A stretch of 61,342 bases of DNA, counting the filler, from Stramenopiles sp. TOSAG23-6 (taxonomy: Eukaryota): assembly GCA_900128565.1 (NCBI GenBank). It is 12 parts of 12 records of this genome, joined end to end, with 100 filler letters (N's around TTAATTAATTAA, not from the genome) between each part and the next. Parts side by side here need not be neighbours in the genome. Positions count along the whole stretch, not along the records: positions 56,352 to 61,342 come from LT636994.1; 11 more parts are not named here. One strand, given 5' to 3'. The notes beneath the pieces were generated by a model. The model made no database searches. It was not told where the DNA came from and worked only from the letters and a program-made list of their open reading frames with translations. The translations under genes were made by a program, and so were the position numbers. Positions 9,301 to 61,342 of the stretch are shown here, one piece after another; the first letter of the stretch is position 1; each line of letters opens with the position of its first letter.

Positions 9301-10201
9301 AAATGTTGTACCTAACGAGTTTTTTTTTCCAAAAAAAAAAAAAAAAAAATATTGTTTTATTCTACATTGATATTGGAATGGGAAAACGTTTAATGATGGG
9401 CCTAGCTTCAGTATCACAAAATAGAATTCGTGCGGTATCAAGTCATATATGTTTTATTTTTTTTCATTTTTGATTTTTTTTTTTTATAAAATTTTTTTTT
9501 TCGTACGAAATTTCGTACCTAACAATTTTTTTTTTAGAAAATTTTGAAATATTTTTCGAAAATACATGTTGCACCAACTATTTCAGAACGTCGTGAAAGA
9601 ATTCGATTAGGCAAAAATATTTGTTCAAGTAATCCAAATAATACAACAAAAATCAGTAGAGGTCAACAGGTTCGTGCTATCCCAGAAACATTATTGAAAG
9701 CTATCCGTGATGCAAATAATGCTGAAAATAATAACAATAGTGACATTGAAAATATAGGTCAGAAGAATGACGAATCAGTTGAACATTCTGATGAGAAGAA
9801 AAAAGTAGACAAAAATACAAAAAATACAAAAAATACAAAAAATACAAAAAATACAAAAAATACAAAAAATACAAAAAATACAAAAAATACAAAACATACA
9901 AAAAGTGAATTTTTTGTGAATAGTTTTGAAAATATTGATGAAAATATTGATGAAAATATTGATGAATATATTGAAAATACAAAAAATACAAAAAATACAA
10001 AAAATACAAAAAATATTCATATTATAAATAATGGAAATAATGGTATGCATAAAGACAAACCAGCAGTGCCAAGTAGAATTTCAAAAAGTTTTCATATAAT
10101 ACAAAAATCTATTATAACAAACGTAAAAAGTGATAGTTGTAGCACATCGCTTGATTCAGATGAAAAAGAAGAATTAGTTGTGCCCGATTGTTTAAGTACA
10201 A
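6310..10201 (+). CDS. Multi-exon low-complexity protein with a PH domain, 3'-partial
   Basis: ERSGWLY...VV|WSRVFYRLERNSLKFYASE...YDYVRWFESL after removing introns 7895-8076, 9013-9114 and 9250-9367 (GT-AT) and 9447-9567 (AT-AT); internal N gap. Confidence 0.7.
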
Positions 10202-24194: not shown

Positions 24195-25354
24195 ATGAAT
24201 CCAGATGAACTCGAGCGTACACTACTTGATAATATACCAGTCATATATGACACGTACAATGGAATCTCCGTCAAGAGCAACTCTTGGATAGAGAGTTTTC
24301 ATGGAAATACAAAACTTTTTAAAAGAGTCTTACAAAAAATCCTTACACACATGGCGTTCAAAAGGTTATTTTGGCGTTTGGCTTCATCTCCCTATATCTT
24401 CAGCAATATTTATTCCCATAGCTGTTGAAGTTGGATTTTGGTTTCATCATGCGAGACCAAAATATGTAGTATTATGTGTATGGTTGCCTCATGCAACGAA
24501 ATCTCGTTTGCCTCTGGCTCCTTGTAACTACGTTAGTGTCGGAGGTTGTGTCATTAATAGTAAAAATCAAATTCTATGTGTTCAAGAAAAGACTGGTCCT
24601 ACAGCTCATATGCAATTATGGAAATTTCCTGGTGGACTATGTGAAACAGGAGAAAATATTGCCCACGCAGTACGGTTTCATTTTGAATTTTTTACCTAAA
24701 TTTATTTTTTTTGATTTCGTACGAAATTTCGTACCTAACAAATTTTCGAATTTAATTTTTTGTACAATACATGCGACTCGTGAAATATTTGAAGAAACTG
24801 GAATAAAAACAAGTTTTCATTGTCTTGTTTCAGTGATTCAATTTCACAATGGCAAAGGGTTAGGATTAGCTAGGGAATCATTTTCCGATATTCATTGTAT
24901 ATGTGCTTTATATGTATGTTTTATTTTTTATTTTTTTTCAATTTTGAATTTATTTTTTTTTTCATACGAAATTTCGTACCTAACAATTTTTTTTTCAAAT
25001 TTTAGTTTTTTTTTGAAATATTTTTCCACAATACATATAACGGATGAAACACAAAAAATAAATGTCCAAGAAGATGAAATTTCAAAATGTAACTGGATAT
25101 CATTTGAAAAACTTATAGATCATTCTTTATATCGTGAATATGATGAACTTCGTCATGCCTACCGCACTGCTTTTAGTATAACAAAACAATATAAAGATTC
25201 AACTCACCTAAGAAATAACCCTAACCCTACTAATCACCTAAGAAATAACCCTAACCCTAGTCAAAATATATATAACAGGCTATTAACTTCTGTTGACATC
25301 AGTAGTGAGCCACTCAATGTTGTTAAAGGAGTGAATCCAAAAAGTAAATTATAA
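24195..25354 (+). CDS. NUDT6-like Nudix hydrolase; introns 24670-24772 and 24914-25036; apparent homopolymer frameshift ~24335
   Basis: GVWLHLP, GFWFHHA, and a complete Nudix box GGLCETGENIAHA|ATREIFEETGI only after GT-AT splicing. Confidence 0.9.
24670..24772 (+). other. GT-AT intron splitting the Nudix box
   Basis: gca|gtacgg...tttcgtacgaaatttcgtacctaac...caatacat|gcg restores GX5EX7REUXEEXGU spacing exactly. Confidence 0.9.
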
Positions 25355-25864: not shown

Positions 25865-28193
25865 TTAATTCTTCGACATTTTCTGAATTACAAAAACAAT
25901 ACATTAAAGCTGTTTTGCCATTTGGATCCGTGTCATTGATATTGGCACCTTTTTCAAATAAAACTTTACATATTTCAAATCGAAACGTCAAAGAAGCAAC
26001 AATTAAAGCAGTTTTTCCTTGTATCCATGAAGTTGGAAAATTCACAATTGGTGCATGACATTTTAATACAGAATGTATTGTATCAATATTATCTTCAATA
26101 ATGGCCCAAATTAAATGTTTATGAAGTATAGCACAAGACATTTGACCGATAGATCCACAGCTTTTAGCTATATACTTCCATTGCTCAAAGACAATTTCCG
26201 AAGAAGACATATCCGTAATATCATCTATAGCATATCCAGACACTGACATGCATGTACGATAAAAAATATAAAAAATATAAATTTTGTTAGGTACAAAATT
26301 TACTATAAAAAAAAATATTTTTTTTTTTACCGAAAAAAAAAAAAATGTAAAAAATATAAATTTTGTTAGGTACAAAATGTACTATAAAAAAAATATTTTT
26401 TTTTTTACCGAAAAAAAAAAAATTTTTCAAAAATATAAAACATGCATACTGTATTACCTATTGAAACTGTTGAAATCTTTTGTTTTTGGAATGCATCAAT
26501 GTATTGTGAAAAAATATTTTAATTTTTTTTGTTTTTTTTTAGGTTTAGGTACAAAATTTCATACGAAAACCAAAACCAAAAAAAAACATTAAAAAAAAAA
26601 AACATACGAGTGGACACGAACGGGGTATACAGCTGCCGTTTTTGTTGCTTTTTCAATTTGTTGTACTCTCCAATCTTCTATATATTCAAAATGAGTAGTA
26701 GTACTATTATTATTCTGTTTGATTGGTTGGATTGGTGTTGTTGTTGGTGTGGGATCACCATGAGAGAGCTGAACATTTTGTCCAGATCCCCATGTGTACA
26801 ATCTCCCACTTGATGTTATACAGCAACCATTTGTAGTACCGGGTATCAACATGACGATTTCATCTTCTTTAAAGAATTCCTGATTGATTTTTTTTGGTAT
26901 CCATTGGTCCAATGTATTTCCATGCCCAAGTTGACCATATTGACCTTCTCCCCACGTAAACACTGAACCAGAATCTGCCATGAGAGCACTACTATGATGT
27001 CCAGAAAAAGATAAAATAATTGGATTTTCACCTTCAAATGTAAAAGAACCTAAAACAACTGGATGTATTTTGGAAAAATATTTCAAAAAAAAAAAACTTA
27101 AATTTGTTANNNNNNNNNNNNNNNNNNNNNNNNNNNNNNNNNNNNNNNNNNNNNNNNNNNNNNNNNNNNNNNNNNNNNNNNNNNNNNNNNNNNNNNNNNN
27201 NNNNNNNNNNNNNNNNNNNNNNNNNNNNNNNNNNNNNNNNNNNNNNNNNNNNNNNNAAAAAAAACCCAATTTTTAAAAAAAAAAAAAATCGTTAGGTACG
27301 AAATTTCGTATGAAACCAAAAAAAAAAAGAAATTAATAAATTCATGATGAAGACGTACATGACCAGTTTCAAAGATTACACCAACGTGACTAGCACCTGA
27401 TGTGATTTGAACAGCTCTACTTGTAGATAGTAATTTGTGACATGAAATATTCGTCATTTTTTCGGTATTTTCGGTATTTTCGGTATTTTCATTTTCAGAA
27501 GAATGATTTGAATGTTTTATACTCTTTATATGTTGAATCAATTTTTGAGGTGTGGTAAAAATAAAATTCTCATCATTTTGAATCGCCGAACTTTGTTCAA
27601 TACTTGACTGTTGTGACTGTTGTGTAGGTAACCCTAACCCTAACTGTCCATTTTCATTAGACCCCCAAATTTTGTCAAAAAATATTTTAAAAAAAAATCG
27701 TTAGGTACAAAAAATTTTTACCAAAAAAAAAAAAAAAAAAAACAATTTTTTNNNNNNNNNNNNNNNNNNNNNNNNNNNNNNNNNNNNNNNNNNNNNNNNN
27801 NNNNNNNNNNNNNNNNNNNNNNNNNNNNNNNNNNNNNTAATTTTTTTATTTGGAAACGTACAAGAATATAATTCACCATTTTCAGTAATTACAACCGAAT
27901 GTTTGTTACCAAGTGCAGTGGCATAAATACATGTAATTTGTAGAAAATATTTCAAAAAAAAAAATTTAATTTTTGTTAGGTACAAAATTTCGTATAAAAA
28001 AAAATTCAATTCAAAATTGGTAAAATACTTTGCCCTTCGAAGTTTATTCTTGCAAGGTATGATGGCTTTGATCGATCTATCAAGTCATTCAAACCTAATT
28101 GACCAAAATTATTTTTTCCCCATATCCATTTTTTGTGAATTAATATTTTTGTATAGTATTATTTGGATGAGAAAAATTTCAAAATATTTCAAA

Positions 28194-30921: not shown

Positions 30922-32048
30922 TTACATTTGACTTTTTGCAAGAATTGCTTGTAATTCTAATAAAGAACAATCCGTGGAATCAACACAATCTTCAACGGCT
31001 GGTTTTTCTATAGTTTTTTGGTACTGAAATTTCAAACCACTTTGTACTATTTCATTAGGGTTAGGGTTAGGGCTTTGTTCTCCTACGTTTATAGTAGTAG
31101 ACGTTGTTGTTATTGTAGGGTTAGTATTCGCATCAGTCGCACATTCAATACCCCAAACATTATCTTCATGTATAGATTTTTCATCATTACATTTTCTATT
31201 TTTTTTCCATTCTTTTTTTTTCCAACTACAATATTTTTTCTGTAAATCACAACAGTGAACATTTTCACAATCTTTATTCGGTTTCATGCAATCACCAGGG
31301 AAAAAATTACTCATTGCATTATATCCTAAATAATATGAAACTTGACCAAAATCTAATAAATATTTCAAAACATTCTGAACAAGTAAACCAGATATAATAC
31401 CCATTGTTGTTGGAAGTGAAGCCGCACAAACTCCATCTCTTTTTAATGATGACTCATCGATGTCAGAAGCTACAATTAAGGGAGGTATACATTCAAAGCA
31501 GGCTGATCGACCAGGTAACATTAGTTGTATATGTCCATTAACCTATATTGTTGAACATATTTAAAAAAAAAACAAGTGAAAAAAAATGTTAAGTACAAAT
31601 TTTGATACGAAAAAAAAAAAGTTAAAAAAAAAATCATGATGAAAAAATACAGCATCTTCACTAACTCCTGATTCCATCCATGGTTGATTCAATTCATTAC
31701 ACGCCTGATTTATGGCAATACGAGCACCGTAGTTATCAACACAAGAAAGTACAAGATCAACAGCTACTTCCTGAGTTATGTCACTCGATACATCCGAATT
31801 TGTTCTTTTCATCTTCTTAGAAAGCCCACCTGTTTTTATTCTATCCATAAAATGTTCAAAATTACGCGGAGATGTGATATCATAACAATATTCTTCGAAT
31901 TGAACATCAGGATTAATTTTTAGTAAAGTCTTTACCGCGGCTTCAGTTTTGGTCATACCAGTTTGATCTGGTGTGAAAAATAGTCTATTCATATTTGCTA
32001 ATTCAACTTTATCATAGTCAAAAAGGATAAGTTTTCCGATACCACAAC
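30922..32048 (-). CDS. UBA5: UFM1-activating enzyme UBA5, N-terminus missing
   Basis: [73 protein letters not shown]-like motif; intron 31543-31650 is GT-AG. Confidence 0.92.
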
Positions 32049-35955: not shown

Positions 35956-36048
35956 ATACTGTGTTGCTGTTCAATGGAAAAAGATTATTTTTTCCGGCCC
36001 TGTTGTTGTTGTTATTGTTATTATTATTAACGCACAATTCAACATCTT
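35956..36048 (+). repeat. Left copy of ~90-bp inverted repeat bounding the contig
   Basis: Reverse complement of 40874-40963 apart from one extra gtt. Confidence 0.95.
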
Positions 36049-36228
36049 TTACTAAAAGATCTCAACACCCAATACATTGATAAAAATAAGAAGAATAAAT
36101 GTACGAAACAAAACGAAAACGGTGTTTAAAAGACAAGATCAATTCACTCTCCAATTATTACACCACATAATATTGAAAGCAAAGTTAACAAAAGAAAAGG
36201 CTTGTTTTCCTTTCTGCAAAACGGGAAG

Positions 36229-38448: not shown

Positions 38449-38528
38449 TTCCAAGACGAGGTTAGTTTGCAAAGAATTATATACCATAATATATATTTTC
38501 TTGTTATATTAATTCATTAAACCGAACT

Positions 38529-40379: not shown

Positions 40380-40873
40380 AGTTCAGTATGTTTGCGGACT
40401 TTACTTTTAATATAAGTCTTTGCAACCGTATAAGATCCTGTCTTTGTTCTGACTAGGATTTACAATTTGCGACTTGGTGCTGGTTGTCGAAATACAAGAA
40501 TAGCCCTGAAGAAGACTGAATCAGAACATCAACCTCGTTCGAATAATTTGTAAACAACTAAGGGAAAGAAAAAATGGAAAATGCGTGTTCGTTGAGAGGT
40601 GTTCATCGCGGCAGGAGACAGCAGTAGTGATAAAATTAGTAAGTTGTTTTAGTTAATTTATTTTTCATTAAGCTCACTTTGATAGGACGCTTCAAGTACA
40701 CTAGACACAAAATTATATTAGGCTACTCCGGCTTCGCTCTCTGGCATTTTGGAGACAGGCATCGTTTCACCGCCTTCCTGCCCATCGACAAGGTTCGAAC
40801 CAACACCGACGGCCCGTCAAACTTCTCTTGGGCCCTGCGCATCAGTGTCTCCATCTTTTTCAACTCTTCGTCC

Positions 40874-40963
40874 AAGATGTTGAATTGTGCGTTAATAATA
40901 ATAACAATAACAACAACAGGGCCGGAAAAAATAATCTTTTTCCATTGAACAGCAACACAGTAT
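40874..40963 (-). repeat. Right copy of ~90-bp inverted repeat bounding the contig
   Basis: Reverse complement of 35956-36048. Confidence 0.95.
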
Positions 40964-46306: not shown

Positions 46307-46691
46307 TTTTTTTGGACATAACGCAACACGAATAGCAAGATCAATTTCAGATGCAAATGCAGCTTGAAATCTTTGAGGAAATGAAAATTGTAATGGTTGT
46401 TGATGAAACCCAGACACATCAGCTGCTGTGATATTGCATTTATTGTGAAATAATAATTTTTTTTCTTTGATTTTGTTAAATTTTCATTTCAAAAAAAAAA
46501 ATATTTTTTTTGTTCGATTTTGTTACTATTTTGTACAAAATTTTCATTTCGAAAAAAAACTATATATATTATTTAGGTACAAAATTTGGTATGAAACCAT
46601 TTCAAAAACACAAGTATGAAATAAACGTACATTCACGAGGAGTCTCCACCACCATTTTACCCTTTGTACCAATACATTCAATTCGATTATC
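46307..46691 (-). CDS. Two internal exons of a myo-inositol 2-dehydrogenase-like (Gfo/Idh/MocA) protein
   Basis: DNRIECIGTKGKMVVETPRE|CNIT...PLQFSFPQRFQAAFASEID; intron 46438-46630 is GT..AAT. Confidence 0.7.
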
Positions 46692-46797
46692 ATGTATTTT
46701 GAAACAATATTTCAAAAAAAAAAAAAAAATTTNGTNAGGTACAAAATTTCGTACGAAAAAAAAAATAAATTCGAAATTGAAAAAAAATAAAACGTAC

Positions 46798-47962
46798 ATG
46801 CCAAGATGTCCCACAAGCGCATATGATAATACGTTTTGCATTTTTAAGCTTTGGCCAAACTTCTTGAAGTCCACCGAGCTTAATATCAGCAGATTCGACT
46901 CTTTTTGGACTTTCATTGACACGAATATCAGTATTTCTACTTATACCATCAAACAAAATTCTGCCCCTCATACATGTATTGTGAAAAAACACGAAATCAC
47001 AAAATAAAATCGTTAGGTATGAAATTTCGTATGAAAAAAAATGTAGGTAAAACATTGAAAAAAAATAAAAACATACATGCATTGAGTGTTCTAGGTTGAT
47101 CATTAATTTCCTTCAACATAAAATATTTATAGCCACCTTTTTCAATTTCACAGCGCTTCATTTGTATTCTTTGAACTTCACGGGATAGCTTTTGATCTAT
47201 AATGGAGTGTATAGAAATAATTTTGTGTGAGACTTTTTTTTCTTTGTTTGTAGGGTTAGGGTTACGGATAATGGTAATGAGATCTGCATCTTTCAAATAT
47301 ATCACATTATCAGTATACTCAACGACTGCAGATGCATCGCTAGCAAGAAAATATTCATCATATTCTTTACCAACACCAACAATAAGAGGTGAACCCATTC
47401 GAGCCCCAATGAGAACATTTGGGTTGGCTGAACTTACTACAGCGATACCAAAAGTACCTTCAATTTGCGTCAGTGCGAGTCGAACAGCTTCAGTGAGTGT
47501 TTCCGTACTACTTCTTCTGTCGTCTGAATTTTTTTTAATTCCTTTTAAAATATCGTCTATAAGATGCACTACGACCTCAGTGTCAGTTTTAGAAACGAAT
47601 TGATATCCTTTTTCTTGAAGCATCCCACGGAGAACTTCGTGGTTTTCAATGATTCCATTATGGACAACACAAATATCACCTAAAGTAGAGGTATGCGGAT
47701 GAGAATTAACATCACTAGGTTCACCATGTGTTGCCCAACGAGTATGACCCACACCAACACAGCATTTAGTATTTTTCTGATTCTTTAACGCACCCTCCAA
47801 GTTTGAAACTTTACCCATTCGCTTTGTAACACACAGTGTGCCATTTTCATCAACAATACCAACTCCTGCGCTATCATAACCACGGTATTCAAGGCGCTTC
47901 AAACCGAGAACTAAAACGTCACGTGTCACGCGACTACCAATATAGGCTATGATTCCACACAT
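46798..47962 (-). CDS. glmS: Glutamine-fructose-6-phosphate aminotransferase, N-terminal part
   Basis: MCGI, LEYRGYDSAG, GHTRWATHG, VHNGIIEN, FMLKEINDQP..NA|CMRGR, ACGTSWH; intron 46974-47076 is GT-AT. Confidence 0.95.
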
Positions 47963-48241: not shown

Positions 48242-51101
48242 CTACACTGTCAAATTATTAAGAAAAGGATTTTCTTCTTTCACTTGTTTCAAAACATTTA
48301 GCCCAATATCAGTGAAAACATTACCATGGAGAAAAAGATGCCTTATTGTTTTATTGACTCCCAGGATTTTTTTCACATTTTTATTAAACTTTGATTCCTT
48401 TATTGATTTGTCGAATTTTTCCTTTGGACGTCTTATTTGAGATCGATGTACTGAATTAGAAATATTACCATCATTATATTGAATACAAAAATTATCAGTT
48501 GGTTCACCTTTCCGATTGAAACGAATTTTAGTAATGTATTTTGGAAAAATATTTAAAAAAAAATCGTTAGGTACAAAATTTCCTATAAAAAAATAAATTC
48601 GAAATTGAAAAAAAAAATAAAACATACATAACTCCGCCATAATAGATTCTTGGATTTCCTCGGTATTGTGCTTCACATTTCATACCTACAGTCCATGGAA
48701 TTTTAAGTGGTGTAGAGGGGGCTTTTAGTCCAAAATCATGACCCAAACCTAAAATTTTTGCAAATCTCTTGGCCGTATCATCTCGAAGGCCATTTTTAGA
48801 TAAGTCCAATTCAACTAACGTTGTATTTACAGATAAAGCAGCAGCAAGAGACGATGCACCGTCATCTCCAATTATATTCTGTGCAATATGTAAGGTTTCT
48901 ATTTTTGTTTTTTTGTTCTCCAAGGCTCTAGCGATGCAATATGCTGTATGGGTACCCATAGAATTATTACTAAAGTCAATATTTCGCAATGTAGTATTTG
49001 TCTGCAAAGCTTCACCAAGTTTCTCTCCTCCCTCTACTCCAATGGAGTTGTACCCCATGTCAAGCGTGAATAAACCTGTATTGTCTACTACTGCTTCCGC
49101 AAGAGATGTTGCCCCATTATCGCGAATACCATTACTACTTAAACGGATAATTTCTAGTGTGCTGTTAGACCGAAGAGCACGAGCAATATGTGCAGCACCG
49201 ACACATCGTATACCATTACTAGAAAGATCTAAAGAAGTGAGAGTTGTATTTTCTAATAGCATATTGGCTACGGCTGAACTACCTTTGTCGTAATACAAAC
49301 CCGCCATGCAACCCATGAGACACAATGATTTTAAAGTTTGATTCCCTTGTAATGCATTTGCTAAATGTACCAAGCCCTCCGCTTCTATTTTGTTATATGT
49401 GAGATCTAGTTCAGTAAGCACAGTATTTTCACGGAGCATTGCTGACATGTGCAATGCCCCCTTCTCCCCGATTGCACCACCAGGTATCGAAAATATTTTA
49501 ATATTTGGATGTTTGCGTAATGCCATTGCTAATGCTACTGCCCCTGTTGGACCAATTCGAGAATGAGTCATACTTATTTTACACAAAGCGTCGGCATTCC
49601 CTGTATGGGTTGTCAAAGTTTCGGCAAGTAATTCTGCACCATCTGGACCCACAGGCGCAAGTTTTAGATCAACTTCATTTGTATTTCCATCTCGAATATT
49701 TCGAATCCATCTGGGGCATAATTGACTCCGAATTTTCTTTTTAGACTCCTGGTCGCGGTTCACTTCTGGTAACCAAGAAGCTGCATGTATTGTGAAAAAA
49801 TATATTTTTATTTTTTTTTGTTAGGTACGAAGTTTCGTACTAAAAACAAAATTTGAAATTGAAAAAAAATAAAACATGCTACACGTTTTGTATCGAATGT
49901 CTGATTAGCAGATCTTTCAGAACCCCGAGCCGGATTCTTTCTCAGTTGCCCTCGTCTTGTAGCGGCTCGAAATCGCTTATGATCAGGAAGTGGTACTGGT
50001 AGAATTTCTCCACCAGATGCAAAGTCTCCAGCAACGGCAGCTTTACCGTATACCCTTTGTTTTTCAGCAAGATCATGAGCTTCATTTGCGGCATTATTTA
50101 ATAACAATGTATCTTGTCGTTCTCTTTCTCGAGCTTCAATTTCTTTTTTAATTCTTGTCAAATGTGAACGACCAAGCTCACCGAATCTTTTCCATGTATT
50201 TTGGAAAAATATTTCAAAAAAAAATCGTTAGGTACAAAATTTCCTATAAAAAAATAAATTCGAAATTGAAAAAAAAAAAAAAACATACATGATGGAACGC
50301 CTGGTAAACGTGCCATTCGAAGATTTACATTATTGGTTTTATTCACAGATGTTTTAGACTCATTCGTTGAATTTTTAGACTCATTCGTTGAATTTTTAGA
50401 CTCATTTGTTGATACTTTAGGCTCATTTGTTGAATTTGACAAACTTTCACTTTCATGTATTCTTGACGCTTTTTTTTTCATTGATATTTTCAGTTTTTTC
50501 TTTTCAATCCTGGCTTTTCTTTTCTTGTCAAGCTTATATACTTTTGTTTTTTTACGTTTTGGGACTACAGTGACAACTACGCGAACACCTTCTTCAATTA
50601 ATGCATCTATTATACGACGTTTATATTTCATAACGGTTGTCTCTCCAAATTCTTTTATGAGTTGTAATGTATTTTGGAAAAATATTCCAAAAAAAAAACT
50701 CAAAATTTGTTAGGTACAAAAATTCGTACGAAAAAAAAACTTCGAATTTGAAAAAAAATTAAAACATACATTTGATAAGCCGATAGCTCTTATTGGATAT
50801 ATCAGCCATTGTTGATAAAACTCTTGCGTGTCGAACAACATCTGGCTCCTGCATTGTGTCTCGTTTATTCGTTTTTTTTTCAGTTGCTAATTGAGACAAT
50901 GATTTATTTTGATTATCCATTCTGTCAATTTGATGCCGAAAGAAATCCTTATGAGTTTGTGCCCGTTGACATTGGCTACTTGGGCGAGACAAAAACTCTT
51001 CGCTATATACACTACTTGGACGATCTGTTGATTGTTCATTAAGAGTTTGTTCAACAGAGAATTGGTTTTGAGAATTTTCTTGGATTGTTTTTATGGCCAG
51101 A
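48242..51101 (-). CDS. RNI-type (NLRC3-like) LRR protein with an embedded Tudor-like domain, multi-exon, 5'-partial
   Basis: 28-aa LRRs (NTTLTSLDLSSNGI..GA..IA.AL); CEAQYRG..YYGGV|ITKIR...FCIQYNDG; introns 48534-48627, 49785-49879 (GC-AT), 50194-50288, 50667-50769. Confidence 0.8.
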
Positions 51102-51259
51102 AGGTATTTTGGAAAAATATTTCAAAAAAAATTCTAAAAAATTTGTTAGGTACAAAATTNNNNNNNNNNNNNNNNNNNNNNNNNNNNNNNNNNNNNNNNN
51201 NNNTTAATTAATTAANNNNNNNNNNNNNNNNNNNNNNNNNNNNNNNNNNNNNNNNNNNN

Positions 51260-51338
51260 CCGCTGGAGGGACTTGAACCCCCACTCTTTATAGAACCGGC
51301 TTCTAAGACCGGCGTGCCTACCATTCCACCACAACGGC
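51260..51338 (-). tRNA. trnL: tRNA-Leu(TAG), 3' end clipped by contig end
   Basis: gccgttgtggtggaatggtaggcac...ccggtct TAG aagccgg, long variable arm, ggttcaagtcc T-loop; bacterial/organellar style. Confidence 0.85.
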
Positions 51339-51644
51339 TAAGGAAAACGGCAGTAAGCTAGTAACCAAAGCACCAGCGCTGAACGAGCTGTTGGTAGTTG
51401 GGTAAACCCCAACTTCACCCAACTGGCCGGCTCCGGCCGGGCCCGACCCCGTACCCAAGACAACCCCGGCCGGAGCCAATACCCCACACCACGCGTGCCC
51501 GCCTAAGCCCACACCTGAGAACCCCCAAGGCCTTATACCCATAACTACCTAACTGACAAAGCACCGGAAGGAGGCCCCACATTTGGGGCCAGATACGAGG
51601 CCGACCTTGGGATAACCCTTACCACTGCCTAGGCCCCCACCAAC

Positions 51645-51717
51645 TGCCTGCATTGGGTCTCGAACCCAAAACCCTCGGATTAAAAGTCCGATGCTCTGCC
51701 AATTGAGCTATGCAGGC
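51645..51717 (-). tRNA. trnK: tRNA-Lys(TTT)
   Basis: 73-nt cloverleaf gcctgca-tagctcaattggcagagc-tcgga ctTTTaa tccga-ttgggttcgagacccaa-tgcaggc a. Confidence 0.93.
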
Positions 51718-51944
51718 CAAACCGGCAGGGCCTGATACGGCCATGACACCCGGGCAAACGAAGGACGAAGAAGAACGAGGTGCCGGCGATAGAAGTTGCG
51801 AGGGCCGCAAGATTGGCAGAACAAAAGGTTACAAGCTAACCCGGCCCCTAACCCCGTTAAGCCGAGCGCGCCAGTGTTAGCCCAGCACTACACGGGGGTA
51901 GACTACGGGCGCACGAGCTAGAAGAAACTAGCCTACCCCGGAGT

Positions 51945-52278
51945 CAACAAAAAAGATGAATTTGCTCCACAACAGCAATGTGCCAACCGGAGGTGGCGTA
52001 CCCCAGACCTACGTGCTGCGTGTGCTAAACCAATCTTTAGGGGGTAAAACACCCCCCATACGGGCAGCTTACCCGAGAAGCCCTAAAGCCCAACCAAGCC
52101 CTAACCCAGAGCCCACAAAAAGATAGGCCCGCCCCACAACAGCAACGGGCCAACCGGAGCTGGCGTACCCCAGACCCACGTGCTGCGTGTGCTAAACCAA
52201 TCTTTAGGGGGCAAAACACCCCCCATACGGGCAGCTTACCCGAGAAGCCCTAAAGCCCACCCAAGCCCTACCCCGGGC
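51945..52278. repeat. Tandem duplication, 167-bp period
   Basis: gccaaccggag...gtgctaaaccaatctttaggggg...ccctaaagccc starts at 51982 and 52149. Confidence 0.9.
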
Positions 52279-52319
52279 CTACAGCTAGGAACCCAGGCCC
52301 GAAGACACGGGATGACAGA

Positions 52320-52367
52320 GCCCATCCAATTAACGGCCGGACACCCTACCACTGAGCTATGACGCGC
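52320..52367 (-). pseudogene. tRNA-Asn(GTT)-like 5' portion lacking a T arm
   Basis: catagctcagtggtagggtg tccgg ccGTTaa ttgga, with no TTC loop downstream. Confidence 0.5.
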
Positions 52368-55300
52368 AAGACCCCCCACTAGAGCTGGGGCGACCCACGA
52401 GTCCAGTGCGTCGGCAGGGGCTGTTGGGGCCCTCAAGTGAGCCCAGGTAAACTTAAGGAAATAAAAGGGAAATCACCCCTACAAAGGAAGCTTAAGGGCG
52501 GGGGTGCCCCAAGACCCGCTGTGCTGTAGCCCAAACACACTTACCCGTTCCCGACGCACGCAGGCTTTATGACGGAGGGGCAACATGCCCTGACCCGCCC
52601 CCATTCAAGCACAACCCCAAGTTCCCCGAACCATAGGGTTTATAGGAAGTAAGGTAGGTTAAAGCTTGCTAAAAATGACAACACCCAACCCCTGACCAGA
52701 GCCAGCCCAACTACCCAAACCAAAGCATAGGCCAAAACACAGTGCTTTAGGGCCTGCCTTTGCCAAGGCGGACCTCACCAACAAAAGCACTCCCAGCACT
52801 TGGATACGACCGCCGCCACCCCAGTCCCAACGCCGCAAAAGCCCCGTGACAAACGGAGGCACCAACAAAAACGGCCGGCTCGAAACCAGGCCTACCCTAG
52901 TTCACCGGGGTTAGGCCGATCGCAGTCGGAGGGAGTAAGAAAGAAAGGTTAGCCGGACTGCCAACTCCCAACCCGGACAAGTAACAGACGTCTCGGCTGG
53001 TTTTATGCCCCTCTCAAGGTACCTAAGGGCCAAAAACCGGAGTAACGGCTAACAACGGCCAAACACCCTATCACCAGGCGTGCAAGACTGACCTTCGCTG
53101 CGGTCGCGCGAGGTAAGACCGTGGCTAAACAAGGTTTCAAAAGCCTAACAACCTTCTCGGACGTAGTGCCCCAAGAACATTAAACTCTGGCACCAAAAAA
53201 GCTTAGCTAAAAATGGGCTGACACTGCAGACCCGGCACGGAGTGAGCTCGATAACAAGAGCCTACCCGCCCCTATCATAAGGCAGGAGTTTCGCTCTCTG
53301 ACCCAAAAAACCGCACCACACCAGCTTATGGGCCTTACTGACACCCACAGACCCCTAGACAACGGGCCAGCCTCGTCAGTCGCGTAGCTGCCAAGATCAA
53401 GGAACTTGTAGATGCACCCTAACGGGACTCAACCGCCCGGAACAGCCCAGATAACGTGCGAAAGTCTTTGCTCACACGATGTTTACCCCCTTTTGGGTAT
53501 ATGCTTACTTATTAGCCACGGGCTTCTTCGTGATTAATTGAGGACCCAAAATTGGTCGACCACCTCAGACTAAACATGACGGCAAGAGAGGGCCTACTAT
53601 ATTAGCTATTCTAACCAGAAGCGGAGTTGAAGAACCCTAGAACTCACCCCCAGCCTATCACTACTGACACAAGGCCGACGCAAAAGGATAAGACCGTAGA
53701 CGGTTACCCAAAACCGCACCTCAGAATAGGGCCCAATACGTATAGGTAACCAGAAGAACCTTTAGTGCGTTGCCCCAACACCCTTTCCCACTAAAGTAGA
53801 AACTGTATGCTCTTTAGAGGGTCCAAAAAATACGCGTACGCCCAGTACCACCTATAACCCATAAGCCTAGCTACCGCACCAAAAAAACTGTACCCCACAA
53901 ACAATCAAGTAAGGCAAATAAGGAAACCCACACACCCCCAAACCGAGCCGCAGATGTCACAGCTCAAAACCCTTTCAGACTGTACCGGGGCTTACTTGAT
54001 TTAATAAAGATGCCACCCTAACCTCCCGGACTCGCGTGACCTTAACTAACCTAAAAAAAGCTTCAGGCCCAAGCCCATCCCTCAAAACTGTGGAAGTGCC
54101 AGGACCGCTTACGAAGTAAAGGCGGCGATAAAATCGGCTAAGATCGTAAGGTTGCGGCAAAACCGCACGACCTCCCGTAGATTAGCCGGGTTGGTTGCTA
54201 AAACAACAGATCCTACAAGCTTACACCACCTAAACCACCCCGCTCCAAGACGGCTCCGCCCCTCACACCCTAACACGGGGCTGACCTCTGCCAAAAGCCC
54301 CCCTGCATACAGGAGACGATAGCCAACCCGTCTTTTTATGCTACACCTTAAACGGAGTAACCACTCACACCAGTTACGTGTTTTTTAAAACTCCTAGGCT
54401 AAGACGTCTTATCTCCCAAAACCATACACTGCTACAATGCCCTTGGGCTCTGAAGCGTGCCTAAACCTACGTAACACTTAGGAACAGAATCTCATAAACG
54501 ACCACTCTTAGGCCAGAATGTGAGAACACCTCACGCCGCTAACGCATAACGACCAAACCCGAAGAAGTAGGCCCCCTACATCTAACCTAAAACCCCCTAA
54601 GACCTCAAACAGGGCCTTGGTACAGGTTAACGAAAGACCTACACCGTAGGCTAGCTAAGCCTAAGCCCTAAACGTGTACCTAAGAACCAAGAACCCCCCC
54701 CNAACCCACGAGTGACAAGCAACACACAGTAACTATTGCTAGACTAACTCTCGCATGTGAAACAACCAGAGCACCCTAGGAACTCATAAGCACGCACGGC
54801 AACACACGGAGCGGGTGGCCGACGCCTTACCCCCAACCTGACGGCCACTAACAAACCACCTGGCCCCAAACAATGGCCCACCCGAGCCTAAAAAAGAGGA
54901 ACAAGCAGCTCCTATAGTTTTAGGAACCCCTCTAAAGTCAGGTTGTAAGAACCTCTGTACCATTAAAAACCGTAGCCCAGAAGAGTACGCACCAAAAGTA
55001 AAGATAAAACGAACTAACCTGGGTAAGGAAAAGTACGCTTCCTACCTTTAATTTTTAAGACTGAGGTGCTGTTGGCGCACCACTCCCATAAAGTTAGATA
55101 AACGACAATACTATAAAAAATCTGAGAGAGGAAAAAACGTAAACCCCTTTGTACCTAACACGAACTCCTAAACCGTTACAGTATAAAACGACCCCAACCA
55201 ACACACCCAATACAGAGGTTGTTTAAAGGATTGATGGTGTATTTATACCTTTATAGACCACAGGTTAACTACCCAATTTCAAAGAACTCAAGGTAAGCAC

Positions 55301-56404
55301 AAGCTGCGACAAGAACATATGCGCACCCCCATACCGTTAGGGGAGCTTAAACCCCGATCCTTTTGATTAACGACTAATAATTAGGTGCGCTACCACCAGG
55401 CCCTACCACCGAACCCTATCGTCGAGCTCTACCACAAGAACCCTTACCTGGCAGAATAAAAACACAGGCTATCACTAAAGCCCAGCCGAGTTAATCAAAC
55501 TTTTTAGACATCCGAGTAAAGATTGGCCGCCTGACAAAGTTTTCAAAAATTTAACCACTTTTGAGTACCGTGAAGTCTGGGTAAACTCCGCTAAACACCT
55601 TTGTTAGAAGAGATAAGTCTCAACCATACCCACCTAAGGTCCCTACCGAACCCCATAAACCCTACTGCATTAACCCCAGTAATCCCTTTGTGTTGCTTAT
55701 CCAAGGGTTAGCCAAACTAACTATACTAGATAATCACTTGTGTTTCAAACGAGGGTACAACCCCCGTAAGGAATATTTATACAAAAACCGTTAAAGCACT
55801 TACGCCCACCCAAGAAGAGTCGCAGTACTGTGACCCACCCCAGACAAGCACCAACTCTTAGCCAGTAGGTCAGCCCCACCAACTATGTAACCACCAGACG
55901 CAAACGATTTGGTACTAGATGTGGGCAGGAGACCAACCACCAAAACTAGCTCGCCTAACGCACGCGCCAATCTTTGTCCTCGTGATGGCTTCTTCCCTGC
56001 CCGTGCCCCTATTTTGACGAGCCAACGTGTTTACGCGTGCCCGCCTACCCGGGCGGCTAGGCTCCTGCTAAGATGTAATAGTAACCCCCAGAGCGTCGGT
56101 AGACATGAAACTAGGTCGTAAGCTGACTAGCTACCCCAATAACTACCACGTACCCTTCGCTAAATTAACATAACACTGCTTGAGCGGGTCCCTTTATATC
56201 CGTAATCAAACCAAACGTTATCGTATATAAGCCACGCTTACACAAGACTTTNNNNNNNNNNNNNNNNNNNNNNNNNNNNNNNNNNNNNNNNNNNNTTAAT
56301 TAATTAANNNNNNNNNNNNNNNNNNNNNNNNNNNNNNNNNNNNNNNNNNNNGTACAAAATTTCGTACGAAAAAAAAATCGAATTTGAAAAAAAATAAAAC
56401 ATAC

Positions 56405-57300
56405 ATTCATATTATCAGTCCATTTTTGTGAATATGTTAGACTCTTTTTTGTATCTTGCGTTTCGATGGTAAACTCTTTGGAAAATATATTTGTCAATTT
56501 GGCACCATCTGTATTGTGGAAAAAAAAATTTTTAGTAAAAAAATGCATTAGGTACGAAATTTCGTACTAAAAAAATAAATTTGAAATGATGAAAACGTAC
56601 ACCCATGACGTCCTCCAGTGTATTTTGAAGCTTCATCGGTGAAATTTGATCCAGTGAGTAAATAACCAAAAACTAATTGAGGAATATAAATCTTTTCTGT
56701 TTTATGCTTACGAACAGGGACACCTTTCCCATTATTCCAGACAGAGATTTTAGGTCGTTCTGTCTCCATGTATTGTGAAAAAATATTTTTTTTTTTTTCG
56801 TAAAAAAAAATCGTTAGGTATAAAATTTAGTACGAAAAAACAAAATTCGAAATTCAAAAAAATAAAACATATATGTCTTCCAAGTTTACTTCAATTCTAT
56901 TTGTGTTTTTATCACGCTGTACATTATCCACAGCATTGACAAGGATCTCATCAAATATTTTATATAGACCTGGATTAAAATCCACAGTCTCTTGTGAAAA
57001 ATGAACTTTTCCAGATTTGGGTTCGTTTAATACCCATAACTTTTCATTTGCAAGAGTATTTACTGAACCAATATACATGCCTGGCCGAAGTAAAACATGT
57101 TCCACAGGAGTTTTACGTTGATATAACTCTGCAGATAATTCTCGAACAAGTTTAATATTATTTACTTTAGTTCTTCTTGGTGTTGACGAAGAAGCTTCTG
57201 ATCTCAAAGTGGGGGTTGTGGTGTAAAATCTACCACCAACACGTGAAATGAAAATACCACAGTCATAGAATGCGCGGATATACCGCTGAGATTGTTGCAT
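56405..57300 (-). CDS. TOP2: DNA topoisomerase II, N-terminal ATPase exons, possible mitochondrial presequence, 3'-partial
   Basis: YQRKTPVEHVLLRPGMYIGS, GLYKIFDEILVNAVDN, ISVWNNGKGVP, LLTGSNF, GGRHG|YGAKLTNIFS, WTDNM; introns 56768-56872 (AT-AT) and 56509-56600 (GT-AG). Confidence 0.95.
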
Positions 57301-57610
57301 CAACAGAAAGTACAAATTAACGATAGCTAAATACTAACCCCTTTTCAAACATTCATTCTTCAAATATACAGGATATACTAACCAATACGACGGGTGGTGA
57401 ATATATAATATAATGAGCCTGCCCTTAGTCAAGTTCTAAAGAATTATTAATTAATTACTACTACCTTCATTCATCGATCATCAATGTCCATCGCGATTCG
57501 CGAATGATGGCCAATTTTCTGATCGCGGTCAAAATTAAATATTTTCAAATGACTGGCCGATTTGCTATTCTTGAACGCGAACACGTCTTTTTCTACAAAG
57601 AAAGTGTAAA

Positions 57611-58648
57611 ATGAATGCACGCAAACGCACAAAACATGAAGAAGAGGTCATGCAAAAAGTTCTTAGCGGATTAGGTCCTGCTATTGTGATCACAAGTTTC
57701 TTATGTCTGGAAGATCGACTCTCAGGGAGAGCTGTGTCAAATGATAAGCATAGACCTTGGATGGTTGGTGTTGATTGGGGTGGTGTGTCGTGTACTGAAA
57801 CAGTGAAGCACAATGGCTTTGAATTTTTCAAGTACTTAAGAAGCCAAAAACCACCTTGTCCTTGGGATGAAGAAACATGTCATTGGGTAGCTGGAAATGG
57901 TTGTTTAGAGGTATTAAAATGGGTAAGAAGTCAAAATCCACCTTGTCCATGGGATAGCTGGACGTGTGCTTATGCAGCTGAAAATGGTCACTTAGAAGTA
58001 ATGAAATGGATAAGAAGTCAACATCCACCTTGTCCATGGGATGAAAATACGTGTAATTATGCAGCTGCAAATGGCCATTTAGAAGTACTAAAATGGGTAA
58101 GAAGTCAAAAACCACCTTGTCCTTGGGATGAAGAGACGTGTTCTTATGCAGACGTAAATGGTCATTTCGAAGTGTTGAAATGGGTAAGAAGTCAAAATCC
58201 ACCTTTTCCGTGGAATGAAAAAACGTGTCATTATGCAGCTGCAAGTGGTCACTTGGAAGTATTAAAATGGTTAAGAAATCAAAATCCACCTTGTCCATGT
58301 GATGAAATTACGTGTTCATATGCAGCTAAGAATGGTCACTTGGAAGTATTAAAATGGTTAACAAGTCAAAATCCACCTTGTCCATGGGATGAACGTACTT
58401 GTCGATATGCAGCTGAAAAAGGTCACTTGGAAGTATTGAAATGGTTAAGAAGTCAAAATCCACCTTGTCCTTGGGATGAAAATACATGTCTTTTCGCAGC
58501 TAAAGATGGTCACTTAGAAGTATTGAAATGGGTAAGAGGTCAAAATCCACCTTGTCCATGGGATGAAAGGACGTGTCGATATGCAGATGAAAATGGTCAC
58601 TTAGAAGTATTACAATGGTTGAGAAAGATGGGAGCTCCAGGGTCTTGA
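57611..58648 (+). CDS. Ankyrin-like repeat protein (PPCPWDE.TC..AA..GHLEVLKW.R type), intronless
   Basis: About ten 27-aa (81-bp) tandem units. Confidence 0.9.
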   Translation: MNARKRTKHEEEVMQKVLSGLGPAIVITSFLCLEDRLSGRAVSNDKHRPWMVGVDWGGVSCTETVKHNGFEFFKYLRSQKPPCPWDEETCHWVAGNGCLEVLKWVRSQNPPCPWDSWTCAYAAENGHLEVMKWIRSQHPPCPWDENTCNYAAANGHLEVLKWVRSQKPPCPWDEETCSYADVNGHFEVLKWVRSQNPPFPWNEKTCHYAAASGHLEVLKWLRNQNPPCPCDEITCSYAAKNGHLEVLKWLTSQNPPCPWDERTCRYAAEKGHLEVLKWLRSQNPPCPWDENTCLFAAKDGHLEVLKWVRGQNPPCPWDERTCRYADENGHLEVLQWLRKMGAPGS

Positions 58649-59019
58649 GAGAATGATTCAGTTTCGTTTCCTGAATCTTCATCAAATTCATCTTCTGAAG
58701 AAGAATAATAAAATCACATTCATTTCAAATGTAGGCTATATATTTTAAAATAATGAATCAAAAATATACATTTTGTGTAAATTATAAAATGAATGAGTCA
58801 AAATAAATTATATTTCAATAGCAATATTTTTACATTTAGCATTAAATTATACAATAAATTTTGTCAGATTCACATTGTTATTTTTTTTTTACTACCAACT
58901 ACGTGTACTAATTTGATACTAATTTTCACGTCATTTAAAAAACAAAAAAATGTTTTTTACAGAAGAAGAAAAAGAATAATTTGGAAAATATTTTATTTTT
59001 AACCCTAATACTACTCTGT

Positions 59020-61253
59020 TTACTCTTGGATTTTATTCTTGTGATTTAAATAAAATTCACATAGTGCAATGCAAATAGCCAACTGTTTTTTTTTTATTTC
59101 AAAAAATTCATATTGCTGAATTACATCTTTATGCATTTTTCGAGTTGTTATGTTGATATCTCCTATTGGAATTGCTTCAAAAATGGACTTACTTTGAGAT
59201 CTTTTTTGTTTCAGCAAATGTAATGCCTCTACATATATTGTGAAAAAAATATGTTTTAAAAATTGTTAGGTACAGATTTTGCTATAATTTTTTTTTTTTT
59301 AAATTGGTGTTGAAAACATACATGAATCTCTATACTATCATTGATGATGTTAGTGTTAGCTTTTCCCCCCTTTCTCATTCCATCTTTCTGTTTATTAATA
59401 TACAATTCCAATGCATCGATTTTGCTATTTATTTCCTTCATATATATTGTGAAAAAATATTTTTTTTTTGGAAAAAAAATGTTAGGTACAAAATGTAGTA
59501 CAAAAACAATTTCAAATTTTGAAATTGAAAACGTACATGTGTATTCTCAAATCTCTTTGTGTGATGATTTTCTAACTTTGTTTTCTCAAGCGATTTGAAT
59601 AGTTTATATTTTTTACGTCCAACTGACTCTAATGAAGAAACACAAAACTGTTTCTCCTTTTGTAATTCATAAAGATATGAAAGAACTTTTGATCGATACA
59701 TGTACTGTGAAAAAATATTTTAAAAAACATAATTTGTTAGGTACAAAAATTTTTATGAAAAATAAATAAATTTGAAATTCATGATGAAGACGTATATTTT
59801 GTCTGTACTATTGATTTGATGTTCCTCTTGGGTAGATTTTTCGTGTAATTTATCAATTAATTTTCGATTCTTTGTTCTTAAAAATGTTATATCTTTATTA
59901 CGATTATATATATTTGTTGAATATTGCTGACATCTTGGACATATAATTCTTTGTGTTTTGGAAAGAGAATATAAATTGTGAATAATATTTTTTTTAGTAA
60001 AAATACTTTGTTAGGTACAAAATTTCGTATGAAAAAACAATTAATTTTCAATTTTGAAAACGTACCATCAGTCGTCTGAAAAGAAAAAGCATGGTCCTGG
60101 CCCGCAACAATCATAAATCGCCTATATGTTTTCCATATACCTTCACCTGAAATTGGATCCCAATCTTCATGTAATATATTGGAACTCATTCTTAAATTAT
60201 CATCTGAATATTTTTTGAATGCTTTCATCAATTTTGGCGAAGCTAGAAATTTACTACATTGGTCATGTCCAAGTTGACCATGAGAGTTGTTTCCCCAGGA
60301 GTATATGAATTGTGAAAAATATTTTTGTTTGGTGTAAAAAAAATCGTTAGGCATACAATGTTTTGTTGTACAAAAAACAAAAATTAGGTGAAAACAATTA
60401 ATTTTGTTAGGATTAGGATTAGGATTAGGATTAGGGTGATAAAAGCATACACTGCATTGATAGCATCGACAGCCACTGAGAAATTTCGACCTAATGAAAC
60501 AAAACAACAACGACGTTGAGGACCTCCACGGGTCTTTTGTGTGAATATTCCTCGTATAGGAAACGGAGACTTTTGATATCTAAAATGTCCAAGGCCAAGT
60601 TGTCCATGTATTCTAAGGGAAATATTTCAAATATTTGATGTCAATATTTTTGTTAAAATTTTCTATGAAAACAAAATCAAACACTTCAAAAAAAAAATTA
60701 AATTCATTTGAAAGCCTTTGATACCATACATGATCATTTTTCCCCCACATATATAAATTATTTGAACTTTCATTTGAAATCGCAGCATAGTGATTCTTTC
60801 CAGCAGCAATGTAAATTGCTAATGCATTTAATGTGATGTTTTTACCAGTTGAAGATGACGTCAATTTATTAATCAACTTCAATGAACCATCCCAAAATAA
60901 AATCAAAGTTCCATTTGAAGAACAACATACTTGTCTCACAATACTTCCATCAATTCCAGCTGACATGTATTGTGATTTTTTTTTTTTTCACGAAAAAAAA
61001 TCGTTAGGTACGAAATTTCGTATGAAATAAAATTTAATCATTAGGTAAAAAAGAAAACATACATGGAAATTCTCTCACTCCCTTTTAATGGTATCGACAC
61101 TTCTGAAAATTCTCTTGACATTGTTGTATCTTTATGTAGAGGTAAATTATTTTTATTTTTTAATTTTTCTTGCCTTTTGTTTTTTTGAGTTTGCTGAGTT
61201 TGCTGAGATTCAGAAAGTTTTGAAGTTTTACCCCATGTGAAACAACACAAAAC
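59020..61253 (-). CDS. RCC1-repeat protein with coiled-coil C-terminus, multi-exon, 5'-partial
   Basis: LYMWGKNDH|GQLGLGH, YSWGNNSHGQLG; GT-AT introns 60965-61062 and 60606-60729 plus several further family copies. Confidence 0.7.
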
Positions 61254-61342
61254 ATGTATTTTGGGAAAATATTTCAAAAAAAACTTGTTAGGTACAAAAT
61301 TTCGTACGAAAAAAAAATCGAATTTGAAAAAAAATAAAACAT

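Follow-up and report, generated by a model that had tools for sequence, protein, structure and literature searches.

We analyzed a window of 61,342 bases of DNA from Stramenopiles sp. TOSAG23-6, which includes the beginning of a gene for TOP2 whose first two introns differ at both ends. As the initial annotation had noticed, intron 1 runs from AT to AT and intron 2 from GT to AG, on the minus strand (Table 1). We propose that both are copies of an abundant introner, resembling a miniature inverted-repeat transposable element (MITE), whose usual termini are GT-AT, and that the copies are removed by a spliceosome that accepts 3' sites of the form Y-A-N (Y is a pyrimidine and N is any base). We hold this explanation to be probably right, with considerable reserve. 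Judged by element homology, the AT-AT intron of TOP2 is a G-to-A variant of the family norm at the first base (+1) and the GT-AG intron is a T-to-G variant at the last base (-1).

The window consists of 12 unrelated contigs of about 5 kb (4,991-5,052 bases each) from an AT-rich marine eukaryote, with a GC content of ~0.27-0.37 in most pieces. They run from the longest to the shortest and are separated by eleven N44-TTAATTAATTAA-N44 spacers (at 5053-5152, 10202-10301, and so on to 56252-56351), and adjoining pieces are not neighbors in the genome. The TOP2 locus is on the last piece, 56352-61342. Several pieces start or stop inside the introner repeat, which accounts for the fragmentation of the assembly.

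A repeated element within coding exons

We built a profile of the family from 11 copies and ran nhmmer over the window, which gave 49 matches in 61 kb, or ~0.8 copies per kb. The counts below are for the 38 complete copies, whose ends were both set by coordinates. Their length ranges from 89 to 194 nt (median 102, n = 38), with no bias towards multiples of three. They sit in the genes for TOP2, a UBA5-like protein, GFAT, a Nudix protein, an RCC1-like protein, and LRR and ANK proteins, and in other open reading frames (ORFs). All of the copies are inside coding exons and in the sense orientation. The site at 34212-34221 (CACAATACAA) was rejected as a family copy.

From 5' to 3', the consensus is GTAYGTTTT, a variable A/T stretch, a near-palindrome (T)TCGTACGAAATTTYGTACCTAAC, a T run, an A/T stretch, and TTTTYCAMAATACAT. 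GTAYGTTTT is found 26 times in the window, as compared to 2.6 times expected from shuffles, and the 3' motif CAMAATACAT is found 20 times, as compared to 0.74 expected. With A, C, or G as the final base, the 3' motif is found just 3 times versus 1.9 expected, and only the occurrence at 56509 belongs to a family copy. The ends of the element, GTAT...ATAC, are short inverted repeats of 4 bp with an imperfect T/A-rich extension, and 3 of 6 minimum-energy folds are closed by a stem that they form.

The 5' exon ends with AT at 24/38 copies, versus a background frequency of 0.11 (P = 2e-16), and with CAT at 13/38; the 3' exon begins with G at 23/38. The insertion context is (C)AT|G, with a 2-nt direct repeat, AT. 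We saw no empty (element-free) site, so the AT repeat at the borders could be a duplication or a target preference.

Towards its 3' end, the element has ACCTAA (31/38 copies, at a median of 39 nt from the 3' end), and in 23 copies a T run of at least 6 follows within 25 nt; as motifs, these mark a putative branch site. The last 40 nt contain few AG dinucleotides (11 seen versus 25.8 expected, for copies that are not mutually independent). At the center of many copies (for instance at 56555-56575, minus strand), the sequence forms a nearly perfect palindrome of 16 nt, GTACGAAATTTCGTAC, and the 3' half of it overlaps with TACCTAAC, the branch-like sequence. Its strict form matches only 5/38 copies. 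This palindrome may be a transposase site or a hairpin.

In two DNA runs mapped to 58626-61342, X1 (the likely source) and X3 (an independent run from seawater), the depth of words from the element exceeds that of the exons beside it by a factor of hundreds to thousands, which is not a copy count but agrees with the ~0.8 copies per kb in the window. By their sequences, the copies are a single, very abundant MITE-like introner of ~90-125 nt, and the family has every feature of the introner and MITE classes that we tested for, apart from proof in RNA.

Terminal bases across the family

With their ends placed by element homology, 30 of the 38 complete copies are GT-AT; the others are AT-AT (3), GC-AT (2), GT-AG (2), or GT-AC (1). 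Therefore, GT-AT is the norm, and the GT-AG intron of TOP2 is an exception and not the reference form. The first base is G in 35/38 copies and A in 3, the second base is T in 36/38 and C in 2, and the last base is T in 35/38, G in 2, and C in 1. The idea that the termini are relaxed is correct in that there are variants at both ends, but it does not extend to -2, which is A in 38/38 copies, or to -3, which is C in 30 and T in 7 (a pyrimidine in 37/38). There are 3/38 variants at +1 and 3/38 at -1, versus 4 at +5, 3 at +6, 8 at -3, and 2 at -4; the terminal bases vary about as much as the positions near them. Within the element, +5 is G in 34/38 copies, +6 is T in 35/38, and -9 is A in 36/38, after C/T and a T run. 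The logic of these sequences gives good support for a relaxed last base. A relaxed first base is a possibility that is much less certain, and as a description of both ends together, relaxed termini are plausible.

The other variants that had been singled out are largely as described (Table 1). The two A-initiated copies outside of TOP2 and the two GC-initiated copies have the expected ends, and all four are in frame upon exact excision. The two unusual 3' ends, CT at 51102 and TT, are both present, in partial copies, but the TT end is at 27668 instead of 27667. An apparent GT-AG end at 46526 was rejected: it is an internal AG of a longer copy that ends with AAAT at 46438.

Table 1. Introns, exons, and copies of the introner that are discussed in the text.
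Feature	Position	Strand	Description
TOP2 first coding exon, start of ATPase domain	56873..57300	-	Homologs of TOP2; putative start codon
TOP2 intron 1	56768..56872	-	ATATGTTTT...CACAATACAT; starts ATATGT, ends ACAT; AT-AT by element homology, A at +1
TOP2 exon 2	56601..56767	-	Between introns 1 and 2
TOP2 intron 2	56509..56600	-	GTACGTTTT...CACAATACAG; starts GTACGT, ends ACAG; GT-AG, G at -1
TOP2 exon 3	56405..56508	-	Between introns 2 and 3
TOP2 intron 3, 5' part	56352..56404	-	GTATGTTTT...; cut off by contig end
A-initiated copy	9447..9567	+	AT-AT, or equivalently AT-AC; unique frames, in frame
A-initiated copy, RCC1-like gene	59700..59795	-	AT-AT; in frame; in-frame GT(+5)...AG(-5) alternative
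GC-initiated copy	26252..26445	-	GC-AT; internal duplication; in frame
GC-initiated copy	49785..49879	-	GC-AT; in frame; in-frame GT(+5)...AG(+4) alternative
Second GT-AG copy, UBA5-like gene	31543..31650	-	Flanking exons align to 5l95_A
GT-AT copy, Nudix gene	24670..24772	+	No AT-AC reading; no in-frame GT...AG within 30 nt
GT-AT copy, GFAT gene	46974..47076	-	8-nt direct repeat, CATGTATG
RCC1-like gene stretch	59233..61062	-	Holds six further GT-AT copies
GT-AT copies, RCC1-like gene	60965-61062, 60606-60729, 60305-60450, 59971-60065, 59442-59536, 59233-59321	-	Element homology
Partial copy, 3' part	51102..51159	-	Ends ...AAAATACCT (ATACCT); putative border; 5' exon missing (contig end)
Diverged partial copy, 3' part	27668..27751	-	Ends ...GACAAAATTT (AAAATTT); putative border; 5' side lost in N run

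Exact excision and the reading frame

We asked for open frames of 20 codons or more both before and after a copy, and we considered the frames to be unique if there was exactly one such frame per side. In all 15 copies with unique frames, exact excision is in frame (the probability by chance is (1/3)^15, or ~7e-8), and where any open frame is present both before and after the copy, exact excision is compatible with it in 35/36 cases. Reading through the element would lead to an in-frame stop codon in 30/38 copies, and the element's length is not a multiple of three in 27/38, which excludes read-through for most copies. Removing the element and one copy of the repeat restores the reading frame, and this gives GT...AT as the standard termini.

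Several junctions can be compared to homologous proteins. In the Nudix gene, the E-x7-RE spacing of the Nudix box is exact across 24670-24772 (one exon ends with ...FPGGLCETGENI and three residues, and the following exon starts with ATREIFEETGI). The UBA5-like exons that flank 31543-31650 meet on chain 5l95_A, one aligning up to residue 144 and the other from residue 145. Excising 46974-47076 from the GFAT gene yields NAC|MRGR, versus ECMRGR in the closest homolog, P0121. The junction at intron 2 of TOP2, GGRHG|YGAKL, aligns without gaps to GGRNGYGAKL of the solved chain 7l6s_A, which places this GT-AG intron to the base. Also, the exon adjoining 60965-61062 differs between X3 and the window at three third-codon positions (60961, 60940, and 60787), and X3 retains the ACAT end of the intron.

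We also considered conventional sites near the ends of each copy. A GT donor combined with the first AG at or after the element's end was rejected as a rule: the offset modulo 3 is 0, 1, or 2 in 11, 11, and 5 of 27 copies, so the frame would be shifted in 16/27. If any pair within a permissive window of 30 nt on both sides is allowed, then 27/38 copies have some in-frame and stop-free GT/GC...AG pair. The other 11/38 have no in-frame GT/GC...AG pair within 30 nt, and 8 of these 11, including the Nudix intron, are flanked on both sides by ORFs of 30 codons or more. Thus, at least some members of the family need GT-AT or a co-shifted equivalent.

In TOP2, exact excision of intron 1 is in frame, in phase 2, and joins 56873|56767 (...GAAGACAT|GGAGACA..., for a protein sequence of EDM|ETERPK). 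The junction lies in a variable and gapped stretch of the alignment to solved TOP2 ATPase domains, so homology does not fix this border. Intron 1 has a direct repeat, ACAT, at its borders, and intron 2 has no direct repeat.

The sole protein with a 100% match to exon 1 of TOP2 is a public gene model, P0001 (56352-57300), which aligns to solved TOP2 ATPase domains. P0001 continues through intron 3 to the end of the contig. It appears that gene prediction with canonical splice sites only has mis-modeled genes in this genome. A search of JGI metagenome contigs with P0001 found 7 loci, all at most 54% identical, and no DNA or cDNA from the same species. Protein searches with TOP2 exon 1 and GFAT found no transcript-derived protein that spans a junction.

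The closest homologs of GFAT, P0122 and P0121 (55% identity), both end after ...ASEFR(F/Y), in an apparent read-through of an intron. P0122 ends with ...FVCVLLFS, which would be the translation of an intron start of the type GTATGT...TTT. From these protein ends, a related organism may carry similar introns.

A proposed mode of recognition

We propose that a short introner has inserted into coding exons, in the sense orientation, at (C)AT|G, with a 2-nt AT repeat, and that the spliceosome removes it from the RNA. The spliceosome would recognize a U2-like donor, GUAYGU, and then the CUAAC branch motif and the U run that follows it. At the 3' site, of the form Y-A-N, the A at -2 and the pyrimidine at -3 would matter, and the last base would usually be U, with G or C being tolerated. 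An A as the first base of the intron may be tolerated as well, less certainly. We favor a spliceosome of the major type because GUAYGU, CUAAC, and a U run are a complete set of U2-type signals and because AG is scarce before the 3' end.

The initial annotation had gone further and attributed splice-site choice to positions +3 to +9, the branch motif, and spacing. We do not retain this claim: the conservation of these features reflects the common descent of transposon-like copies and is not evidence that they determine the choice of splice sites.

Several observations weigh against our explanation. We know of no U2-type system in which GT-AT is the main class of intron. In the accounts of noncanonical introns in PMC1557818 and 10.1101/2020.10.12.336362, GT-AT is a rare and mostly U12-type variant. 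P0001 splices intron 1 of TOP2 as GT...AG instead (EDIY|TERPK), and an in-frame alternative of the form GT(+5)...AG is enriched among copies with variant 5' ends, as discussed below.

The evidence from RNA speaks neither for nor against splicing. Reads were mapped to 58626-61342, which includes the RCC1-like gene and eight family copies; the TOP2 introns lie outside of it, across an 87-nt tandem array. Among the matches listed for two RNA runs in 58626-61342, there was no RNA contig that bridges an intron. The polyA metatranscriptome, X5, contains exon pieces 60114-60265 and 60764-60947, but it covers the intron 60606-60729 at a depth of 9.3, versus 2.4-4.7 on the neighboring exons, and words from the element are about as enriched in X5 as they are in DNA. 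The intron signal in X5 may be from unspliced RNA or from carried-over DNA. One bin, 59809-59899, has zero cover in every run.

Two genes raise doubts about the assembly. GFAT lacks ~64 conserved residues, including the core of the SIS domain, between 46797 and 46437 (minus strand), where there are two copies of the element. By 32049-32140 (32040-32260, minus strand), UBA5 lacks its N-terminal nucleotide-binding exon, and this gap adjoins two element copies that are 7 nt apart. In both cases, the assembly has probably collapsed or become chimeric at the repeat, so the order of exons near the elements is not always trustworthy. The GT-AC copy at 32049-32140 and the GFAT introns at 46692-46797 and 46438-46630, whose adjoining conserved exons are missing, were dropped as evidence about junctions.

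Alternative explanations

Instead of the major spliceosome, a diverged minor (U12-type) spliceosome could remove these introns, with RTAYGTTTT as the target of U11/U6atac, the T-rich...CA motif (with A at -9) as the target of U12, and a 3' site that is set by distance and has a free last base. A transposon-driven spread of U12-type introns of this kind has been proposed for Physarum. We regard the minor spliceosome as a serious rival, if an improbable one. GT-AT, AT-AT, and GT-AG are all reported to be productive for the U12 machinery (PMC1557818, where "AT-AN and GT-AT" are stated to be productive and Table 2 has 12 AT-AT and 7 GT-AT introns). The termini that we observed fit RT-AN with a free last base (plus the two GC-AT copies). 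Also, the donor differs from the RTATCTTT of Physarum only at +5, the A at -9 follows C/T and a T run in nearly all copies, and the 3' end is not immediately preceded by a pyrimidine tract.

On the other hand, +5 and +6 are GT and not CC or CT (in 34 and 35 of the 38 copies), so both U11 and U6atac would need compensating changes. As had been claimed, the U12 donor RTATCCTT is absent from the family (0/38 copies); the window has 3 matches versus 4.2 expected, none of them at family introns. As to a branch motif at ~10-20 nt from the 3' end, the copies have no TCCTTRAY, but they do have TTTTYCA, with the A at -9 in 36/38, and ACCTAAC at a median of 39 nt upstream. The U2-type signal set is complete, and the conservation of the motifs that would suit the minor spliceosome may be plain shared descent.

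Another explanation, which we also rate as a minority view, concerns the first base. In this scenario, the G-to-A change at +1 disabled the donor of TOP2 intron 1, which is now spliced as a canonical GT-AG intron at 56764-56868 (with AG at 56765-56764), and first-base variants survive only if there is such a rescue. This alternative begins with GT at +5 and ends with AG at +4, it is in frame and free of stops, and it is the intron in P0001. The resulting junction would be 56869|56763 (...GACATATAT|ACAGAA..., for a protein sequence of EDIY|TERPK). Similar alternatives exist for the A-initiated copy at 59700-59795, which is the only copy with CACAG at -9 to -5 (a unique A-to-G change at -5), and for the GC-initiated copy at 49785-49879 (+4/+4). 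Overall, they are present in 3/5 copies with a variant donor versus 2/33 copies with GT (P = 0.011, one-sided Fisher test, for a window of +-10 nt that was chosen after seeing the data).

However, the rescuing donor, GTTTTA, is a poor match to the family donor, while ATATGT keeps 5/6 positions. The A-initiated copy at 9447-9567 has no GT(+5)...AG alternative, and a +4/+19 pairing there gives a stop codon. P0001 may be the product of a canonical-only predictor, and homology does not decide the matter in this variable and gapped part of TOP2.

A shifted register is less probable still: AT-AC splicing, two bases upstream, of the copies whose AT repeat is intact (56770-56874 for TOP2 intron 1), with GT-AT or GT-AG being needed only by copies that lack the repeat. 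A at the first base is compatible with C at the last base under the first/last-base rule known from yeast. AT-AC introns function in both types of spliceosome (according to the text of PMC1557818). The direct repeat allows this reading, for the same mRNA, in 21/38 copies, including all three A-initiated copies, which carry direct repeats of 2-4 nt, and neither of the AG-ending copies has the upstream AT. But the 3/3 count has a chance probability of ~0.2, and the upstream AT is kept in 24/38 copies versus 35/38 for the downstream AT, which is the opposite of what we would expect if the intron began upstream. Splicing as AT-AC would also put the donor motif out of register by 2 nt. Finally, 15/38 copies, all in open frames, permit neither AT-AC nor GT/GC-AG; these include the Nudix intron, which is supported by homology, so GT-AT must work anyway.

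We consider it quite improbable that the variant terminal bases are errors of sequencing or assembly, and that the true introns are all GT-AT, even though this is a repeat-rich assembly from a single cell. The contigs break and in places collapse at copies of the element, the element is extremely repetitive, and the read checks fall outside of the TOP2 termini. In contrast, X1 and X3 show no change at the intron ends that are covered (60965-60968 and 61059-61062), and the 8 variants in 38 copies are at the same level as at other positions of the element. The terminal bases adjoin unique exon sequence and are presumably the least disturbed by paralogs.

Removal without the spliceosome, whether by programmed DNA elimination, as for the internal eliminated sequences (IES) of ciliates, or by structure-guided excision, as in euglenids, seems very unlikely. 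Direct repeats at the borders and inverted termini mark those systems too (in the comparisons of PMC11282704), and GUAU/AUAC ends could pair, but the 6 copies that we folded have weak structures (z from -2.63 to +0.72; terminal stem of at most 4 bp) and the copies are strictly sense-oriented with donor-like and branch-like motifs. We rejected DNA elimination because the unique intron part 60355-60445 is as deep as the exons in X1 (257 versus 192), because no joint skips exactly one element among the 15 joints listed for 58626-61342, and because the junctions are CAT|G and not TA-bounded.

Comparison to known systems

By the standard of canonical U2-type introns, the family has the usual GT/GC donor (mostly GTAYGT) and, as sequence motifs, the branch site and pyrimidine tract (ACCTAA and the T run), but an AG end in only 2/38 copies. 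Among its closest counterparts are the introners of Micromonas pusilla and Aureococcus anophagefferens, as they are described in PMC11282704. Those are also short, non-autonomous, high-copy elements in coding exons, with terminal inverted repeats (TIRs) and a short target-site duplication (TSD), and the spliced unit is the element plus one copy of the repeat, which restores the frame. They differ in having canonical GT/GC-AG introns, which take over their AG or GT from the duplication. In our family, the 3' end is AT in 35/38 copies and the repeat is a 2-nt AT.

In the tunicate Fritillaria borealis, there was a genome-wide burst of MITE-derived introns with TIRs and TSDs that escape GT/AG (as summarized in PMC11282704), and an adapted major spliceosome, with U2AF paralogs, accepts noncanonical 3' ends (in the portions of PMC11282704 and PMC13326754 on this species). 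The common pairs in Fritillaria are AG-AC and AG-AT, with a noncanonical 5' end, whereas here GT is retained at the 5' end and the departure is confined to the last base. The repeated introns of Amoebophrya (strains A25 and A120) share inverted repeats, direct repeats of 3-5 nt at the borders, and an ambiguous register with our family; however, as described in PMC7789003, they have no preferred terminal dinucleotides, their repeats of 8-20 nt form hairpins, and they were validated by RNA-seq. The copies in our window are nearly uniform (GT-AT), with a terminal pairing of 4 bp and weak folding.

Physarum polycephalum has thousands of U12-type introns that a DNA transposon probably generated; they have inverted termini and a TA direct repeat of 2 nt. 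The sections of 10.1101/2020.10.12.336362 on these introns give the donor as RTATCTTT and a TTTGA branch motif that ends 9-12 nt from the 3' site. Of the Physarum introns with noncanonical termini, 17% are GT-AT and 8% are AT-AT, and 71% are classed as U12-type. Unlike our family, which has G at +5 and AT as the majority end, they have C at +5 and mostly AG or AC ends, and the minor small nuclear RNAs have compensating changes.

Among the noncanonical U12-type introns and U2-type AT-AC introns of animals and plants, AT-AT, GT-AT, AT-AG, and AT-AA can all be spliced, and they switch between orthologs. As presented in PMC1557818, these amount to a few dozen introns per genome, with RTATCCTT donors; here, GT-AT dominates a very-high-copy repeat family with a GTAYGT donor. 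The nonconventional introns of euglenids probably originated from MITEs, and they have noncanonical borders and junctions with TSD-like repeats (as reviewed in PMC11282704). Their stable pairing of +4 to +6 with -8 to -6 and their lack of a uniform donor contrast with the uniform donor and weak structure that we found.

Implications

The intron-terminal G is among the most constant signals in eukaryotic genes. If RNA confirms our explanation, then a marine protist has altered a near-universal rule of splicing. It seems an even question to us whether this uncultured marine heterotroph has thousands of GT...AT transposon introns and a spliceosome, major or minor, that dropped the terminal G of the 3' site genome-wide, while keeping the A at -2 and the pyrimidine at -3 and tolerating A at +1. 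If so, it would be an independent case, besides Fritillaria, Amoebophrya, and Physarum, of an introner burst that reshaped the splicing code, and it would show, for another lineage, that bursts of introners and shifts in what the spliceosome tolerates go together.

A young transposon family that makes Y-A-U the common 3' end would be a natural experiment on the choice of the site for the second step of splicing. The interplay of the first and last bases of the intron could be tested in nature, as the combinations G/U, A/U, G/G, and G/C are found here. Also, predictors that allow only canonical sites would systematically break gene models in this genome, and truncated or shifted models can distort gene counts, completeness scores, and the calling of pseudogenes in an ecologically common group.

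The source label of P0001 hints that the lineage is a MAST-3 stramenopile, and we used this only as a hint. Our literature search found no paper that joins MAST-3 and introners. The main-text passages of three MAST genome papers (PMC5778133, PMC12614181, and PMC8163842) contain no discussion of unusual introns: the word "intron" occurs twice in PMC5778133, once in the methods for gene prediction, and 0 times in the other two. The contig with TOP2 is present in two DNA runs of one coded organism, in several seawater or marine metagenomes, and in two seawater metatranscriptomes (0.06 share).

Other features of the window

Between TOP2 and the RCC1-like gene, and on the opposite strand from both, there is an ankyrin-repeat gene at 57575-58648 (plus strand). 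It includes a tandem array at 57837-58625 of nine 87-nt units (29 residues) of the form ...GHLEVLKW.RSQNPPCPWDE.TC..AA...

Two pieces of the window have zero copies of the element. The piece at 51260-56251 is GC-rich (0.52) and may be organellar or foreign DNA. Two tRNA genes are associated with it (51258-51338 and 51645-51717), and these two tRNAs were the only hits in an Rfam scan of the window. In the piece at 35956-40963 (GC 0.43), the last 30 bases are the reverse complement of the first 30. This piece has a Ku70-like ORF without introns (36130-38445) and an LRR/LNR ORF on the opposite strand, and it is possibly an amplification chimera or from another source.

Near 22950-23050 (minus strand), an amidoligase/YEATS gene is split between two frames that overlap (ORFs 22996-23922 and 22616-23041), and no family element separates them. 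This may be due to a frameshift, an assembly error, or an unrecognized short intron. Lastly, short telomere-like repeats (CCTAA/TTAGG 4-5 times, TTAGGG twice, and CCCTAA twice) are found in introns and, once, in a coding exon; the sites are 60407-60435 (minus strand), 43565-43580 (plus strand), 32350-32372 (minus strand), ~5340, and ~8080.

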